Below, in pieces: positions 5,218 through 12,484 of a DNA stretch of 31,136 bases; position 1 is the stretch's first letter, and every line of letters begins with the position of its first letter. Both the position numbers and the translations under genes were made by a program. Below the pieces are notes generated by a model. That model saw nothing but the letters and a program-made list of their open reading frames with translations. It did no database searches and was not told where the DNA came from. Source of the stretch: Candidatus Odinarchaeia archaeon (GTDB lineage Archaea; Asgardarchaeota; Odinarchaeia; Odinarchaeales; Odinarchaeaceae); the NCBI GenBank assembly GCA_029856525.1, contig JAHQXC010000005.1:1-31136 (forward strand), written 5' to 3'.

Positions 5218-5673
5218 ATGAACGTGTCTAAAAAAACTAGAATTCTCCTACCTGTCTCAACAAGAATTAACAGAGAACTCTTATTAAAAGGATTTGATAT
5301 ATTGAAAAGTTTAAAAAACCCTGATTTAACCATTTTCCATGTAATTGAGCTTCCTGTAACAGCTTCACTAGACATTTTAGAGCATAATAGAATCGTTCAA
5401 GAATTACAACAACAGTTAACTCCTATTATTAAATGGATAGAAGAACAATCTTTTAAAATATCAAGTAAGATCGTGGTTGCCCGTCATATATCTGAGGCGA
5501 TCGTGGAGGAGGCTAACAGCGGAGACTATGATCTGGTGGTTTTATCGAAAAGAGAGCCTCCTAAAGGTTTAAAACGAATATTTTATAGAAGCCACTCAGA
5601 TTATGTGACAGGTAAAATCAACTGTCCAGCTCTCATACTCGTGGATAAAAAATACTCGTCTTCAAGACTTTGA
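5218..5673 (+). CDS. Universal stress protein (UspA family)
   Basis: ILLPVS, TIFHVIE and AIVEEANSGDYDLVVL...SHSDYVTGKINCPALIL match the USP fold. Confidence 0.85.
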   Translation: MNVSKKTRILLPVSTRINRELLLKGFDILKSLKNPDLTIFHVIELPVTASLDILEHNRIVQELQQQLTPIIKWIEEQSFKISSKIVVARHISEAIVEEANSGDYDLVVLSKREPPKGLKRIFYRSHSDYVTGKINCPALILVDKKYSSSRL

Positions 5674-7059
5674 CAAGCTTATGAAAGGCGACGGTATCCG
5701 CCCTCCCCGCTGAATCAACTTCGATGATTTAAACCTACTAACCTCCATAACAGGAGCTCTTCCAAGTAAACCTCCATAGTCAACCCAGTCACCGGGCTTC
5801 TTACCGTAAACAGGTATAAGTCTAGCTCCAACCGTTTTACGATTGATAACTCCGAGAGCTATAATATCTCCTATTAGCGCAGCGATAGTATCCGGGCTTG
5901 TATCCCCAGGTATAGGGATCATGTCAAGACCTGTAGAGCAGACGCCGCTCATCGCTTTTAAATTATCTATCGTTAAAGCGCCTTCACCGGCTGCTTTAGC
6001 GATGACATCATCTTCTAAAACAGGTATGAAAACCCCGCTTTGACCTCCCACATATTTCGAAGCCATACTACCGCCTTTCTTTAACGCATCAGCTATAATC
6101 GCGATAGCTAAAACACTTCCAGGAGCTCCGAAGCACTCCACCCCCATACTCTCAACTATACCGCCGACACTGTTACCACCTTCCGGTGAAGGGGCTAGTG
6201 AAAGATCTACCCCCCCGAAATCAACTTTCATTTCTTCAGCTATCCTTCTCCCGATAAGCTCTCCTGCTCTGGTAACCTTGAAACTGGTTGACTTAATAGC
6301 TTCAACAACATCTCCAAGAGATGCAGCTTCATCTAAATTATTTAGCACAGAGTGAACTACACCGGGACCGCTTATACCAACAGTTAGAGACACGTCGCTG
6401 TCCCCTATACTATGAAATGCACCAGGCAGGAATGGGGTTCCCTCAGCCGCATTAGCCATCACCATAAGCTTCGCACAACCTACGCTGTTCTTATCTCTCG
6501 TATGGTAGGCTACATCTCTGATTACACCGCCCATTCGCTTAACCATATCCATGTTTATACCGCTCTCTGTTGACGCAACATTGACGAATGAGAAAACTCT
6601 CCCTGTAGTGGATAGTACAATGGGTAAGCTTTCTATAAGCGCTTCATCCGCTGCAGACGCCCCTCTGTGAACAAAACACGAGTAGCCTCCGATATAATCA
6701 ACCCCCGCGTCGACAACCGCTTTATCAAGGGTTTCAGCGATTTTTAAACATACTTTAATTCTTGCAGAATCATTCTCCCCCTTTAATAGGCTTCCAAGTA
6801 TTATGGAGATAGGGGTGACTGCGATACGCTTATTAACTATCGGAACACCGTATGATTTCTGAACCGTTCTACAGCTTTCATCAAACTGTTTAGAATAAGA
6901 CATTATCTTATAATATATTTTATCGCATGTCTCCTCGACGCTTCCAGTAATACAGTCTAGGAGGCTGATGCCTAAAGTAGCAGCTCTGATATTAAGCTTC
7001 TGCAGTGTGATCATCTTAATAGTTTCGATTATCTCCTCTGTATCCAGTAAAACAGGCAT
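5662..7059 (-). CDS. DUF711/UPF0210 (PFL-like) family protein
   Basis: LNIRAATLGISLLDC, PIVNKRIAVTPI, GISGPGVV, VDLSLAPSP and CSTGLDMIPIPGD are characteristic of UPF0210. Paired with an upstream ACT protein. Confidence 0.9.
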   Translation of the reverse strand: MPVLLDTEEIIETIKMITLQKLNIRAATLGISLLDCITGSVEETCDKIYYKIMSYSKQFDESCRTVQKSYGVPIVNKRIAVTPISIILGSLLKGENDSARIKVCLKIAETLDKAVVDAGVDYIGGYSCFVHRGASAADEALIESLPIVLSTTGRVFSFVNVASTESGINMDMVKRMGGVIRDVAYHTRDKNSVGCAKLMVMANAAEGTPFLPGAFHSIGDSDVSLTVGISGPGVVHSVLNNLDEAASLGDVVEAIKSTSFKVTRAGELIGRRIAEEMKVDFGGVDLSLAPSPEGGNSVGGIVESMGVECFGAPGSVLAIAIIADALKKGGSMASKYVGGQSGVFIPVLEDDVIAKAAGEGALTIDNLKAMSGVCSTGLDMIPIPGDTSPDTIAALIGDIIALGVINRKTVGARLIPVYGKKPGDWVDYGGLLGRAPVMEVSRFKSSKLIQRGGRIPSPFISLSKS

Positions 7060-7071
7060 TTTTTAAGCCTC

Positions 7072-7359
7072 CTAAACCCTGTGTAGGAATTTAAAAATCT
7101 CCTCTTTAAGCGCGATAAGTGTAACCCCTGTCTCCTCCTCCTTCTTTTTAAGAATGTTTTTAAGCTCATCATAACTTATCTTCGAATTACTCATATCCGC
7201 TATCATTATCATAGTGAATACAGGGGTTCCGGATTGAAGGATCGTGGAGCGCATATCCTCTATGTTAATATTGTTTTCAGCTAGTATATTAGCCACCATA
7301 GCAACTATCCCGGGGCGGTCAACCCCGACAACGGTTATAACAATTTTTTCCTCACCCAT
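7072..7359 (-). CDS. Stand-alone ACT-domain protein (UPF0237)
   Basis: VITVVGVDRPGIVA...NINIEDMRSTIL...FTMIMIAD. Start moved to ATG 7359, which follows a GGTGA SD. Conventional partner of DUF711. Confidence 0.9.
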   Translation of the reverse strand: MGEEKIVITVVGVDRPGIVAMVANILAENNINIEDMRSTILQSGTPVFTMIMIADMSNSKISYDELKNILKKKEEETGVTLIALKEEIFKFLHRV

Positions 7360-7455
7360 TAAACTCACCGGTAAACCAGCCAGTTAACTCATTAACTGAT
7401 TAAGTATATAAAAATATTTTAATACCATTGCAACCTTGATTCTTATGGTGGTTTA

Positions 7456-8697
7456 ATGTCTTATGTGAATCTTAACCTCCAAGTTGATAGCGAAAAATAT
7501 GTTATAGCAGATTACACTCTTGAAAGCGATCTGCCTTTAGAGATTGCAGCTGAGAAATTAGCGGCGGAGGAGAGCACAGGTACATGGACGGAAATCTCCA
7601 CGACTAATACTAAAATAGTGGAGGAGCTTGGAGCTAAAGTCTTCTATATTGATAAATCGAAAAACTTTGTTAGAGTAGCCTACCCGCTAGACGACTTCAG
7701 CTGGGATATAGGCGGTGTTCCTCAATTTCTAAGCGTGGTTGCAGGTAACTTCTTCGGTCTAGAACAGTTGAAGAACGCTAGATTACTGGATGTTCATCTT
7801 CCAAAACAGGTTATTAAATTATTTAAAGGCCCGAAATTCGGTTTACACGGTGTTAAAAAACTTATGAACTGTGAGCATAAGCCCTCTATAGGTGGAACAG
7901 TTAAACCGAAAATAGGTTTACCTCCTAGAAAATACGGGGAACTCGTTTATCTTTTCGGTTTAGGTGGTTTAACCGCGGGTAAAGATGATGAAACCCTGGT
8001 TAACCAAAGATTCTGCCCGCTTATAGACCGTGTTATAGCTGTGAGAGAGGCTATAGATAAAGTTAAAGATGAAACAGGTCAAAGCATGCTTTACTCTGTC
8101 AACGTGACCACGCGGGTCGATCAGATATTAGAAGTAGCTGATAAAGTCATCAGTCATGGAGCTAACCAGCTTTTAGTGGATGTGATAGTCGCTGGCTTTA
8201 GTGCTGTTCAAGCATTAGCTGAAGACGCGAGTATAAATGTACCTATCCACTGTCATAGAGCTATGCACGCAGCTTTCACAAGGAATCCTAAACATGGAAT
8301 ATCTATGAAAGTGATAGCTAAGCTATGCCGTTTAGTAGGCGGGGATATACTTCACGTGGGAACATGGGGCGTCGGTAAAATGCATGGTGAAGCTGATGAA
8401 ACACAGATATACGCGGACGCGATAACCCAGCCGATGGGTCATCTGAAACCGATGCTTCCTATGGCTAGCGGGGGGTTACATCCAGGTTCAGTGGAGGCTC
8501 TCGTTAGAAGAGCCGGCGTGGATATTCAGATACAGGCCGGCGGGGGGATTGCAGGACACCCTGACGGAGTGTTAGCCGGGGCTAAAGCTCTGCGACAAGC
8601 CGTCGACGCAGCTGTACAAGGGATCCCCGTTGAAGAATATGCGAAAACTCATATAGAGCTTAAAAGAGCCTTAGAACACTGGGGGGTTGTGAGATGA
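7456..8697 (+). CDS. rbcL: Ribulose-1,5-bisphosphate carboxylase, archaeal form III-type
   Basis: AAEESTGTWT, AGNFFG, KPKIG, KDDE, HCHRAMH, HVGTWGVGKM, ASGGL and AGGGIAGHP. All the usual catalytic residues are present. Confidence 0.93.
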   Translation: MSYVNLNLQVDSEKYVIADYTLESDLPLEIAAEKLAAEESTGTWTEISTTNTKIVEELGAKVFYIDKSKNFVRVAYPLDDFSWDIGGVPQFLSVVAGNFFGLEQLKNARLLDVHLPKQVIKLFKGPKFGLHGVKKLMNCEHKPSIGGTVKPKIGLPPRKYGELVYLFGLGGLTAGKDDETLVNQRFCPLIDRVIAVREAIDKVKDETGQSMLYSVNVTTRVDQILEVADKVISHGANQLLVDVIVAGFSAVQALAEDASINVPIHCHRAMHAAFTRNPKHGISMKVIAKLCRLVGGDILHVGTWGVGKMHGEADETQIYADAITQPMGHLKPMLPMASGGLHPGSVEALVRRAGVDIQIQAGGGIAGHPDGVLAGAKALRQAVDAAVQGIPVEEYAKTHIELKRALEHWGVVR

Positions 8698-8723: not shown

Positions 8724-9701
8724 TTATATTACTTTATAATCTTCTAGAATCTGGTTTCTGAAACTCTTTTTAAAACCGTTTTTACTGTAGAAAACATCTT
8801 TATTCATTACTAGAAGAGGGTGGTCGAACGCGTCTCCGCAGAAATCTAAATCCGCTACAGGCGGTTTCACTAAAATCACTTTTCTATTAAATATTAACCG
8901 CTCTATTTTATCCACCATATATTCTTTAACTTCTTCAAACCCGCTTAATAATATGTTTAAAGGAATATCTAAAAATAGAGGTCTCAGCTTCACCACTGTT
9001 CTAGACGCTTTCCTCCGTCTAAGATCAGCGTTTTCAACTAGTATTTTAATATCTCCTTTACTATCAACAGGCGGAGCTATGAAAGCCATCTCTCCGTTTT
9101 TAAGATTAAAATCTTCGCGTAAAACAAGTCTCTCATAATCCCCTAAAATATTATCTAACTCTCTAAGCGATTTCAGAAAATCCTCTCTACTACGCTCTTC
9201 CCGTTGAACCGAAAAAAATTCACCGCCGGTTTTGATAAGCGCTTGAAGTTCACCGTTTAAAACCTTAATACTAGCTTCATCTAAATTCACTGGATTAACT
9301 CTGGTGACGGTGAAGCCTGCTTCTATAATCCGCTCTAAATCTATCTTTCTGTTAAAATAGAAAACCCAGCTGTCTCGTTTAAAATACGGGTGTCTGAGAA
9401 TATTTAAGGGCGCGTAAACTCTAAGATTCTCCTTTAAGCTGATTTCTCTTAGCGCGAATAATCTATGAGTTCCATCCGCTATAACATAATTTCTTCCAAG
9501 TTCAGTTACAAGTATCGGATGAAGGAATCCTTCTAAGTTGAAGCTTTCAATCAACTTTTTTATAACACTTTTATCTGAAACAGTACGCTCATGTTCAACT
9601 ATACGGCTGATATCCGATAAGCCGAATTCAACTATGAAATCATCGTTTAAATCCTCGAATTTAATCCTCCAAGAATATTCTCCGAGATTGAATGATATCA
9701 T
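8724..9701 (-). CDS. ParB/Sulfiredoxin-fold protein resembling SerK-type small-molecule kinase
   Basis: IVEHER...HPILV...YVIADGTHRL, then RDSWVFYF and RRKASRTVVKLRPLFLDIPLNIL. These parallel SerK motifs PHEQ, DGHHR, TWYP and PKTTRH..P..IDVKLEDL (compared from memory). GGTGAGG SD. Confidence 0.6.
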   Translation of the reverse strand: MISFNLGEYSWRIKFEDLNDDFIVEFGLSDISRIVEHERTVSDKSVIKKLIESFNLEGFLHPILVTELGRNYVIADGTHRLFALREISLKENLRVYAPLNILRHPYFKRDSWVFYFNRKIDLERIIEAGFTVTRVNPVNLDEASIKVLNGELQALIKTGGEFFSVQREERSREDFLKSLRELDNILGDYERLVLREDFNLKNGEMAFIAPPVDSKGDIKILVENADLRRRKASRTVVKLRPLFLDIPLNILLSGFEEVKEYMVDKIERLIFNRKVILVKPPVADLDFCGDAFDHPLLVMNKDVFYSKNGFKKSFRNQILEDYKVI

Positions 9702-10005
9702 AACCTCACCGATTATATTTTTCTATCAAACCCTCATTTTTATGAATTCAGTTTAACTATAGCCGACTTATCACTGAAATTTTTAATCTCTTCCAATTTA
9801 TATATTTCAGTTTTTAAAACTTTGACGGAGTTTATAATTATATGATTTTAACCGTGAATTGAGATCGCATCCACTCATATCGTTGAAGCTTATGCTTTGT
9901 TTAAAGTAGCTTACTATCTCTAACATTATTAAGCAGGCTTCGTCGGATAGTGTTCGGTAATTCTCTTAATATGTTTTTATATAAAACTGGTTTAATATTC
10001 ATAAA

Positions 10006-10938
10006 GTGATATTTATGGAGATTATTGAAAAAACAGCTGCTGATATTAAAAGGTTGAAGATTCAGGGTGCAACAAATATAGCTGTTAGCGCTTTAACCGC
10101 TATCACCGAGCAGTTGAAGGTTTTAAATCCTAAAACAGTTCAGGAAGCTCTCACCCTACTTTATAAGATGAAGGAGATATTGTTTCAAAGCAGGCCAACT
10201 GAACCTGCTATGAGAAACGGTGTTAAATATATACTATATAATTTTCAGCGTAATATCCGGGAGCCTGATGATATAAGTGAATTGATCTCTTCTTTAGCCT
10301 CCCAGTATATTAAAATGCTTAAAGAGGCTAAGACTAGAATTCAGTTAATCGGTGCTAAAAGGATCGTCGACGGGATGACTGTGATGACTCACTGTCACAG
10401 CTCTATTGTGAGCGGCATCATCATCAAAGCGTTTCAGGATGGTAAAAAATTCGATGTAGTGTGCACGGAGACTCGACCTTTATATCAAGGGCATATAACC
10501 GCAAGGGAGCTTACTGAGAAAGGTGTTAAAACCACGCTTATCGTCGACTCCGCGATGAGATGGGCTATTCGACAGAAAGAGGTTGATTTAATACTTGTGG
10601 GGGCTGACGCGATCACATCTGAGGGTGTTGTTTTAAATAAGATAGGGACAAGGCTGCTAGCCTTAGCTGCTGAAGAGTATAATGTTCCATTCTATGTAGC
10701 TACACCGTGTTTTAAGTTCTCGCCTGAAACAGTTATAGGAAACCTTGAAGAAATAGAGTTGAGGGATCCAAGGGAGGTTTGGGATAACCCTCCTGAGAAT
10801 CTTATAATCGATAACCCTGCTTTCGAAACAGTTGCTAGAAAGTATATTCACGGAATTATAACAGAGCTTGGAATACTTCCACCAGCTTATCTTTACGGGG
10901 CTGTTGTTGAAAAGTATCCTTTTATATTCTCAGATTAA
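10006..10938 (+). CDS. Ribose-1,5-bisphosphate isomerase (eIF-2B alpha/beta/delta family)
   Basis: IQGAT, SRPTEPAMRN, THCHSS (catalytic Cys), ETRP, GADAIT (catalytic Asp), NKIGT and NPAFETV. Directly upstream of AMP phosphorylase. Alternative start at ATG 10015. Confidence 0.9.
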   Translation: MIFMEIIEKTAADIKRLKIQGATNIAVSALTAITEQLKVLNPKTVQEALTLLYKMKEILFQSRPTEPAMRNGVKYILYNFQRNIREPDDISELISSLASQYIKMLKEAKTRIQLIGAKRIVDGMTVMTHCHSSIVSGIIIKAFQDGKKFDVVCTETRPLYQGHITARELTEKGVKTTLIVDSAMRWAIRQKEVDLILVGADAITSEGVVLNKIGTRLLALAAEEYNVPFYVATPCFKFSPETVIGNLEEIELRDPREVWDNPPENLIIDNPAFETVARKYIHGIITELGILPPAYLYGAVVEKYPFIFSD

Positions 10939-10963
10939 AACTATTCTTAAAGGGTGTTTGAAA

Positions 10964-12484
10964 ATGGTTGAGTACACTGTTAAGCCGATAGATATAGTAT
11001 GCGATTACAACCAGGTTGTGTTAAACGAGAAAGACGCTAAGAATATGAAGATCTCATCTAGAGGACGGGTTCAAATTAAATCTATTAATAAATCCTTCAC
11101 AGCTGTTTTACTTATAACTAAAAGTCTTCTAAGAGAGGGGGAGATCGGGTTAAGTGAGAAGCTTATGAGAGATCTACAAGTGAAGGAAGGGGGAATAGTC
11201 GAAGTCACCCCTGCTAAAACACCGGTCTCCTTATCGTATATTAAGAAAAAATTAAGCGGGGATTCCTTAACTCACGCTGAAATGACTCAAATCGTAGAGG
11301 ATATCGTCTCCATGACTTTAACCCCTGTTGAGATGGCCGCCTTCATATTAGCTCAACACTATCAGGAACTTTCTATGGCTGAAGTGGAGTATTTGACTAG
11401 AGCTATGGCGGAGACAGGGGTTACAATAGACTTCGAGGAGCCGGTTTACGATAAGCATTCTATCGGCGGCGTTCCAGGTAATAAAGTCTCTCTTCTAATA
11501 GTTCCCATAATCGCATCTATGGGTCTTTTAATACCTAAAACAAGTAGTAGAGCGATAACTTCACCTTCAGGAACCGCTGATACATTCGAGGTTTTAGCTC
11601 CAGTGAACTTTTCAGTCGAGGAGATTAAATCTCTGGTTAAAAAAACACGCGGCTGTCTTGTATGGGGTGGAACCCTTAACATCGCACCCGCAGACGATAT
11701 TTTAATTGAAACCGTGGAGTATCCTCTAAGTATAGATCCGATAAGTCAAATGCTAGCTTCAATAATGTCGAAGAAATTAGCTATAGGAGTAGACTCCCTT
11801 GTATTAGATATCCCGGTTGGTTTAAACGCTAAGGTTAAAACTAAAGATGAGGCTGTAGCTCTTTCAAGAAAGTTTGTTGAGCTAGGTGAAAGATTGAAGA
11901 TGAGAGTTGAAGTCGGGTTAACGTATGGTGATCAACCTGTCGGTCACACGGTCGGACCTGCTTTAGAAGCTAAGGAAGCTCTTGAAGCGTTAATGGGCAT
12001 CGGTTCATCCACATCTCTTATAGAGAAATCCACGGCTTTAGCCGGTATACTCTTAGAGATGGCTGGGCTTGCGAGCAGGGGTAGCGGTCAACAGCTTGCT
12101 TTAGAGTGCGTTAACAGCGGTAAAGCTCTTAAAAAAATGAGGGAGATTATTGAAAACCAGGGTGGTAATCCTAATATTAAACCTGAGGAGATTCCTTTAG
12201 GCGATGAAACCGAGGATATACTAGCCCCATTCTCAGGGTATATCGTGGAGGTGGATAATAAAGCGGTTAACGCGATCGCGAGAGCCGCAGGCGCCCCTGA
12301 GGATAAAGGTGCCGGCGTCTACCTTTATAAAAAAAGAGGCGGCTACGTGAAGAAAGGGGAGCCTATCATGAAAATCTATGCTGAAAAATCCTCTAAGCTC
12401 AGTGAAGCGATATCAGTGGCGAATAAATCTAACCCGGTGACAATCGAGGGCATGCTTCTTAAACATGTATCCGCTTTATACTAA
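10964..12484 (+). CDS. deoA: AMP phosphorylase (thymidine phosphorylase family, archaeal long form)
   Basis: N-terminal extra domain, DKHSIGGVPGNK, KTSSRAITSPSGTAD, GGTLNIAPADD, SIMSKK and ARAAGAPEDKGAG. Start moved from 10868 to ATG 10964 (506 aa). Confidence 0.93.
   Translation: MVEYTVKPIDIVCDYNQVVLNEKDAKNMKISSRGRVQIKSINKSFTAVLLITKSLLREGEIGLSEKLMRDLQVKEGGIVEVTPAKTPVSLSYIKKKLSGDSLTHAEMTQIVEDIVSMTLTPVEMAAFILAQHYQELSMAEVEYLTRAMAETGVTIDFEEPVYDKHSIGGVPGNKVSLLIVPIIASMGLLIPKTSSRAITSPSGTADTFEVLAPVNFSVEEIKSLVKKTRGCLVWGGTLNIAPADDILIETVEYPLSIDPISQMLASIMSKKLAIGVDSLVLDIPVGLNAKVKTKDEAVALSRKFVELGERLKMRVEVGLTYGDQPVGHTVGPALEAKEALEALMGIGSSTSLIEKSTALAGILLEMAGLASRGSGQQLALECVNSGKALKKMREIIENQGGNPNIKPEEIPLGDETEDILAPFSGYIVEVDNKAVNAIARAAGAPEDKGAGVYLYKKRGGYVKKGEPIMKIYAEKSSKLSEAISVANKSNPVTIEGMLLKHVSALY

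Follow-up and report, generated by a model that had tools for sequence, protein, structure and literature searches.

The 31,136-nucleotide stretch analysed here (Candidatus Odinarchaeia archaeon, assembly GCA_029856525.1, contig JAHQXC010000005.1, positions 1 to 31,136; hereafter the window) contains a 325-residue protein-coding gene, gene X (8724..9701, minus strand), whose modelled product has the two-domain SerK/SbnI fold and is more than a ParB core. Together with a larger sister family, X is a further uncharacterised branch of the SerK/SbnI superfamily, and, by analogy with the relatives, we consider the chances about even that X is a divergent free-serine kinase making O-phosphoserine (Sep), a product that could be used for 3-phosphoglycerate (3-PGA) or by SepRS/SepCysS. 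To our knowledge, two characterised families of free-serine kinases (SerK and SbnI) and one proposed family (DUF1015) are known. X is a real, conserved gene, with a ratio of nonsynonymous to synonymous substitution (dN/dS) of 0.10–0.23 among four Odinarchaeial genomes indicating purifying selection (rbcL, 0.05), and it is the sole SerK-like gene of its genome, a 93%-complete metagenome-assembled genome (MAG). The nearest homologue, from Ca. Odinarchaeum yellowstonii LCB_4, shares 76% identity and is labelled by NCBI as a “ParB N-terminal domain-containing protein”, much as an earlier reading of the letters and open reading frames (the sequence-only reading) had anticipated in expecting automated annotation to call X just ParB-like.

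Searched as a lone sequence, X gives N-terminal matches over residues 24–92 (ParB_N, E 0.012; TIGR00180, E 1.2e-5; NCBIfam SerK model, E 2e-5), within a ParB/Srx domain of the ParB-CTPase fold spanning residues ~24–105 (9387..9632, minus strand). A profile of the X clade built from seven orthologues matches, in the PDB, the P. furiosus orthologue of SerK (1vk1, 3.3e-7), Tk-SerK (5x0b, 4.8e-7), and the N-domain of SbnI (6.7e-7), with the alignment of X residues 24–251 to residues 15–239 of the 242 of SerK spanning both domains. In this alignment H37-E38 is paired with PHEQ, ADGTHR with VDGHHR(W), W112 with the SerK tryptophan, and K231..R234 with KTTRH, bearing out the proposal that the EHER and DGTHR motifs of X, and the segments downstream of them, parallel SerK through to the second domain. 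The AlphaFold (AF2) model of X, computed from a 57-sequence alignment and of high confidence, with a predicted local distance difference test score (pLDDT) of 94.5 and a predicted template modelling score (pTM) of 0.90, extends this relationship to structure. Foldseek ranks SerK and SbnI entries ahead of any ParB, at 5.8e-13 (5x0k) to 4.7e-11, and an independent aligner, VIA-align, gives Z scores of 18.4 for SbnI (245 residues) and 15.4 for Tk-SerK (211 residues), with sulfiredoxin next at 7.2, a resemblance far above chance expectation. SbnI and Tk-SerK are the only structures to match the model over both domains, as the sequence-only reading would require of a SerK-like kinase, with ParB, Noc, and Srx structures aligning solely with the N-domain (~81–87 residues for ParB and Noc). 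X also falls below the TIGR00180 cut-off (25.1 versus 58.45 bits); where canonical ParB, Spo0J, and Noc partition proteins continue past the N-domain with a helix-turn-helix DNA-binding domain and a C-terminal dimerisation domain, the remainder of its model follows SerK and SbnI. Its DGTHR motif lacks the cysteine of sulfiredoxins (GCHR, with a catalytic Cys in a single-domain protein of ~100 aa), which match the N-domain only. The NCBIfam SerK model matches 54 of the 57 members of the extended family.

The region of X past the end of SerK comprises ~73 residues (253–325; 8727..8945, minus strand), close to the ~80 first estimated, and is modelled as a helix followed by a small strand/helix unit carrying the invariant D293. 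Since alignment of the narrow X clade to the wide sister family with hhalign covers 290 columns with the C-terminal region included (probability 100%, E 1.7e-39), this “extension” is a common feature of a larger uncharacterised family of ~290-aa proteins. ESM Atlas models from Nitrososphaerota, Thermoproteota, and Chloroflexota likewise cover residues 6–321 of X with TM scores of 0.67–0.69, one of these proteins being 284 aa in length.

Among proteins of known function, Tk-SerK of T. kodakarensis (TK0378; PDB 5x0b, 5x0e-k) and PF0380 (1vk1) represent the ADP-dependent free L-serine kinases, with which X shares the two-domain fold, the H-E pair with its catalytic glutamate, the DGxHR motif, a conserved tryptophan, and the K..R motif of the C-domain. 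X differs from SerK in its low sequence identity (21–24%), in the change of KTTRH to KASRT, in the ~73 additional C-terminal residues, and in the extra conserved arginines R109, R172, and R229. SbnI of Staphylococcus (PDB 5ujd, 5uje, 6nr6), a serine kinase that uses ATP and also regulates the staphyloferrin B genes, is the best structural match, aligning with model residues 1–288 and thus with part of the C-terminal region. It is a bacterial protein of a siderophore operon with 15–18% identity to X, for which no sign of DNA or haem binding was seen. Nagata is said to have identified E30 of Tk-SerK as the catalytic base in 2017, and Verstraete, reportedly, E20 of SbnI as the catalytic glutamate in 2018. 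DUF1015, or “SerBK” (PF06245), has a related fold (Atlas cluster TM 0.55 over 217 residues) with a weak echo in sequence, X scoring 11.2 bits (E 0.17) where the gathering threshold is 25.8; unlike X, these proteins are bacterial and larger. The ribose-1-phosphate (R1P) kinases of the PfkB family (TK2029 type, NF041134; haloarchaeal, NF053626) are unrelated to X in fold, and X has no PfkB match.

The positions expected to act in catalysis, judging by SerK and SbnI, are conserved in X. H37-E38 (within V-E-H-E-R-T; 9588..9593, minus strand), aligned with H29-E30 of Tk-SerK, is invariant in the narrow clade and present in 26 of 27 sequences drawn from both families. The A-D-G-T-H-R segment (D76-G-T-H-R; 9462..9476, minus strand) is the counterpart of SerK DGHHR, the box that binds phosphate in the ParB/Srx fold, and its D76, G77, H79, and R80 are invariant both among 57 sequences and among these 27. 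In the C-domain motif K231-A-S-R-T (8997..9011, minus strand), which reads K-T-T-R-H in SerK and the wide family, K231 is found in 27/27 and R234 in 26/27 sequences, with W112 and R240 completing the set of residues conserved across both families. S233 and T235, by comparison, are specific to the clade, hhalign pairing KgSRT with KtTRH. The narrow clade can be recognised by ADGTHR, R109-x-x-W, R172, PPxDxxxD, and LRRxK(G/A)SRT, whilst the wide family retains the SerK-like motifs LDGMHR, WYR, and KxTRH.

An exhaustive search for homologues of X returned 63 representatives at E ≤1e-3 and 16 at E ≤1e-10, and a tree of 76 sequences resolves two groups, the branch between them being 1.78 changes per site long (SH-aLRT 99). 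The narrow group (n = 22), made up of sequences from Odinarchaeia, “Ranarchaeia”, one “Hodarchaeota”-labelled MAG, and metagenomes, is on its sequences a small, deep, and distinct Asgard clade, to which a metagenome scan for further members added five short loci only. The wide sister family occurs in Asgard archaea, Nitrososphaerota, Thermoproteota, and Chloroflexota, and Asgard genomes with a match carry either the narrow or the wide form in a single copy, the latter in place of X, with one exception that has two matches. An ESM Atlas cluster of 617-aa Chloroflexota proteins, which contain 2-Hacid_dh and 2-Hacid_dh_C domains and superpose on 263 residues of modelled X (TM 0.66), suggests a SerA/SerK-like fusion from its predicted structure; no long fused forms were found among proteins of 656–2000 aa, a range that leaves out this 617-aa fusion.

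X lies tail-to-tail with the gene for the type III RuBisCO large subunit (rbcL; 7456..8697, plus strand; RuBisCO_large 3.6e-76, TIGR03326 410.5 bits), their stop codons 26 bases apart, and is divergent from the gene for ribose-1,5-bisphosphate (R15P) isomerase (e2b2; 10006..10938, plus strand, likely start ATG 10015; IF-2B 6.9e-72, TIGR00511 273 bits) across an intergenic region of ~300 bp (9702..10005). The gene for AMP phosphorylase follows (deoA; 10964..12484, plus strand; 506 aa from M33 of the listed open reading frame; TIGR03327 693.8 bits, cut-off 535), and these domain matches confirm the neighbours named in the sequence-only reading. The listed deoA frame begins at a TTG before e2b2 has ended (10868-10963), the true start being ATG 10964 as indicated by 506-aa orthologues and the family model. 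All Odinarchaeial contigs found share the gene order GMPS-like, Hjc, deoA, e2b2, X, rbcL, even where X identity falls as low as 42%. The linkage of X with rbcL and deoA, which the sequence-only reading had asked to see recur in related genomes, thus holds throughout the Odinarchaeial genomes found and is absent outside them: none of the narrow-clade members outside Odinarchaeia lies beside RuBisCO genes, and the adjacency of X to RuBisCO is specific to Odinarchaeia.

Comparison of the X/e2b2 intergenic region of the window with those of four related genomes (L001, L011, L012, L004) revealed no conserved operator or palindrome, the sole conserved part being an AT-rich, TATA-like stretch near e2b2, and a scan of the region for consensus promoters and terminators gave matches at chance level. 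No Rfam family matches the region. The spacer is ~300 bp here and 78–175 bp in the four relatives, the additional ~180 bp having no Rfam match and no listed open reading frame. On the far side of rbcL and divergent from it (5662-7368, minus strand) lie genes for a 98-aa ACT-domain protein (NF001220) and a 465-aa DUF711/UPF0210 protein, a pair kept in the LCB_4 and J65 Odinarchaeial genomes, the ACT domain of which hints at an amino-acid ligand.

The genome that carries X both uses and can form Sep. It encodes SepRS (523 bits, cut-off 381) and SepCysS (438 bits, cut-off 365), and Sep is therefore a required metabolite; it also encodes a short phosphoglycerate dehydrogenase (PGDH)-like SerA and an AGXT-type class V aminotransferase, the latter family serving as phosphoserine aminotransferase in Methanococcales. 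SepRS was considered as the only route to Cys-tRNA, and this was rejected, as CysRS, although not found in the MAG that carries X, occurs in two congeneric genomes, one of which is a single contig. A putative compact module from hydroxypyruvate to 2-phosphoglycerate lies on contig C91 (L065:1444-3805), where the gene for a MOFRL glycerate 2-kinase comes directly after, and slightly overlaps, that for a glyoxylate/hydroxypyruvate reductase (476.7 bits, above cut-off).

Further evidence comes from the genes that surround the wide sister family, surveyed at 20 loci from other Asgard genomes, with their open reading frames clustered together with those of seven narrow-clade loci. The wide-family gene lies near a short PGDH-like or hydroxypyruvate-reductase-like (serA/HPR-like) dehydrogenase at seven loci from three GTDB families, near an AGXT-type class V aminotransferase at four loci from three families, and near a methanogen-type SerRS at three loci from two families. 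At L047 five co-directional genes are found in the order serA-like, c7, SerK-like, c18, and AGXT-type aminotransferase. Such strings (L047:4877-10567, minus strand; also L046 and L054–L056), seen in two other Asgard families, are candidate serine/phosphoserine operons; from the short PGDH-like SerA to the aminotransferase, they encode in turn an unknown protein of 157 aa (weak OST3/OST6 match), the SerK-like protein (~290 aa), and a second unknown protein, of 605 aa, that matches nothing in Pfam or NCBIfam. At L058–L060 (GTDB families f33 and f28) the methanogen-type SerRS (NF002120, 493–512 bits) adjoins the SerK-like gene or lies one gene away; an identification of this neighbour as SepRS was rejected, and both families also possess SepRS. 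The context of the sister family parallels that of DUF1015 “SerBK”, for which interconversion of serine and Sep next to serA/serC has been proposed (PMC13759103), so that the superfamily is repeatedly tied to the serine/phosphoserine/3-PGA node.

Taken with the characterised relatives, these data allow a reaction to be proposed for X, the kinase activity that the sequence-only reading already suggested being one that we infer by analogy. X would belong to the SerK/SbnI (ParB/Srx-fold) superfamily as a soluble, two-domain kinase of small molecules and would most likely phosphorylate the hydroxyl of L-serine to yield Sep. If X works like SerK and SbnI, its N-domain would bind the nucleotide donor through D76-G-T-H-R, E38 would act as the base that deprotonates the acceptor hydroxyl, and K231 and R234 of the C-domain would hold the acceptor within the interdomain cleft. 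The Sep formed may serve as substrate of SepRS/SepCysS for Cys-tRNA, or may be converted by the AGXT-type aminotransferase and the short SerA to 3-PGA, which the adjacent RuBisCO also produces. The donors of known relatives are ADP or ATP, ADP in the case of Tk-SerK (PMC5120207), and one archaeal SerK-like protein bound CTP (PMC12704722). Were ADP the donor of X, as in Thermococcus SerK, the second product would be AMP, the substrate of the neighbouring deoA-e2b2-rbcL pathway, and both Sep and AMP would then end as 3-PGA. A route from serine to 3-PGA through SerK, PSAT, and SerA has been proposed for Thermococcus downstream of the oxygenation reaction of archaeal RuBisCO, with phosphorylation first and transamination and reduction after it (PMC11032457). 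Of the two functions put forward in the sequence-only reading, a link from serine to 3-PGA is thus in keeping with the serA-like, AGXT-type, and SerRS context of the sister family and with the use of Sep by SepRS/SepCysS, whereas the other, a supply of R15P from a ribose phosphate, fares poorly, as discussed below.

Several observations weigh against free serine as the substrate of X. The SerK equivalog NF053625 scores 23.9 bits against a cut-off of 380, on the N-domain alone, and the SbnI equivalog NF033589 scores 18.1 against 350; Pfam SerK_C (PF18231) has no match in X at E up to 1 and none in the 19 narrow-clade members at E ≤0.01, compared with 3 of 39 sister-family members. The serA-like, AGXT-type, and SerRS neighbours are a feature of the ~290-aa family and not of X, and with 18–22% identity and a long branch between the two groups the contextual evidence for X is borrowed from its sister family, reaching it only through ~20% identity. 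Narrow-clade members outside Odinarchaeia lack serine-related neighbours, lying between ThyX and HflX or beside nothing recurrent, and no neighbour of X evolves as fast as X itself, the most distant Odinarchaeial genome showing 42% identity for X and 57–86% for the others. The genome can, moreover, form Sep from 3-PGA without a kinase and has its own SerB (189 bits, curated cut-off 144). Across 400 Asgard genomes, SerK-like genes (81/400) and SepRS (83/400) overlap only partially, with no phyletic coupling between them. Lastly, the acceptor-side motif has changed, from TRH to SRT, with the preceding F/Y-x-P replaced by R-R, and R109, R172, R229, D213, and D217 are conserved specifically in the clade; by sequence, these changes could reflect another substrate.

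The altered motif, the added charged residues, and the long branch would be explained if the narrow clade had changed substrate relative to SerK and X phosphorylated another serine-like hydroxy compound, such as D-glycerate, L-threonine, homoserine, or D-serine, and the HPR/glyoxylate-reductase-like and AGXT-type neighbours of the sister family would fit a non-phosphorylated route from serine to glycerate. We regard this as unlikely, with K231 and R234 conserved as in SerK, a canonical MOFRL glycerate 2-kinase encoded directly after the glyoxylate/hydroxypyruvate reductase in the same genome, and the characterised relatives all serine-specific, Tk-SerK rejecting threonine and homoserine (PMC5120207). 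All characterised or proposed relatives, namely SerK (PMC5120207), SbnI, and DUF1015 “SerBK” (PMC13759103), act on serine or Sep. DUF1015 raises the further prospect that X runs from Sep to serine, replacing SerB or working alongside it, as this family has an SbnI-like fold, adjoins serA/serC, and complements E. coli serB (PMC13759103). Three genomes of one Asgard family (G295, G296, and G297 of f27; 81–83% complete) possess a serA-linked SerK-like gene and show no SerB-type match, P-type ATPase fragments alone scoring, and no RuBisCO or SepRS match, and in this family the SerK-like protein may replace SerB as proposed for DUF1015. However, the serA-linked genes of these genomes are members of the sister family, thermodynamics disfavours the reverse reaction (PMC13759103), and the presence of SerB and of a glycerate kinase in the X genome makes both SerB-like and glycerate-kinase roles for X less necessary, leaving a Sep-to-serine role highly improbable.

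The position of X invites readings centred on RuBisCO. As a kinase of the pentose bisphosphate/AMP pathway, acting on R1P, ribose 5-phosphate, ribose, or a nucleoside and feeding R15P to e2b2 and RuBisCO, X would be a non-PfkB solution to the R1P-kinase step that TK2029 performs in Thermococcus, and only in this setting would the PfkB enzymes be its functional analogues. Its place between rbcL and e2b2-deoA in all Odinarchaeial genomes seen, the promoter region it shares divergently with e2b2, an acceptor-side motif unlike that of SerK, and clade-specific R109, R172, and R229 that could bind a substrate phosphate all speak for such a role. AMP phosphorylase, however, yields R15P directly, so that the cluster is complete without a kinase and the pathway has no gap calling for X. 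The absence of an R1P kinase from the window, remarked on in the sequence-only reading, extends to PfkB proteins in general, but the genome encodes elsewhere a PfkB ribokinase-like protein (128 and 123 bits on two R1P-kinase models), a second PfkB, and MTAP, with the PfkB genes on other contigs. Because the whole block from GMPS to rbcL is syntenic, with X as its fastest-evolving gene, the linkage to RuBisCO could be merely inherited, and clade members elsewhere are not near genes of the RuBisCO pathway. RuBisCO-like genes are present in 349 of the 400 Asgard genomes, with X-type genes a small minority and SerK-like genes in no phyletic coupling to RuBisCO, one family having a SerK-like gene in 5/5 genomes and RuBisCO in 0/5. 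We consider a pentose kinase quite improbable. Rather doubtful, too, is a broader proposal that would add X to the Odinarchaeial RuBisCO module as its dedicated fourth component. X would fill this place either as an ADP-dependent kinase whose AMP, via deoA-e2b2-rbcL, and phospho-product, via PSAT/SerA, would both become 3-PGA, an archaeal equivalent of the step at which glycerate kinase closes the C2 cycle, or as a ParB/Srx-fold kinase of a pentose phosphate that would be a new enzyme family for R15P supply. X might, alternatively, be a non-enzymatic nucleotide-binding switch or regulator of the divergent e2b2-deoA operon or of RuBisCO, in line with its divergence from e2b2, its faster evolution, and the annotation of SbnI as a bifunctional regulator/kinase that also regulates transcription. 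This is very unlikely given the strict retention of the catalytic Glu and Asp, a model lacking a helix-turn-helix or other DNA-binding domain, an isoelectric point that ranges from 4.95 to 9.27 across the narrow clade, and an intergenic region whose length varies from 78 to 300 bp without a conserved palindrome.

Confirmation that X and its relatives phosphorylate free serine would complete the serine/phosphoserine/3-PGA node in metabolic reconstructions of Asgard archaea, provide a source of phosphoserine for SepRS-dependent cysteine coding, and open to testing the Thermococcus proposal of a C2-type salvage loop around archaeal RuBisCO that SerK closes. Were a pentose phosphate the substrate instead, X would represent a new family of kinases in the pentose bisphosphate pathway. 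Gene order ties this uncharacterised branch of the superfamily to serA, a serC-type aminotransferase, and SerRS, and, in Odinarchaeia, to RuBisCO.

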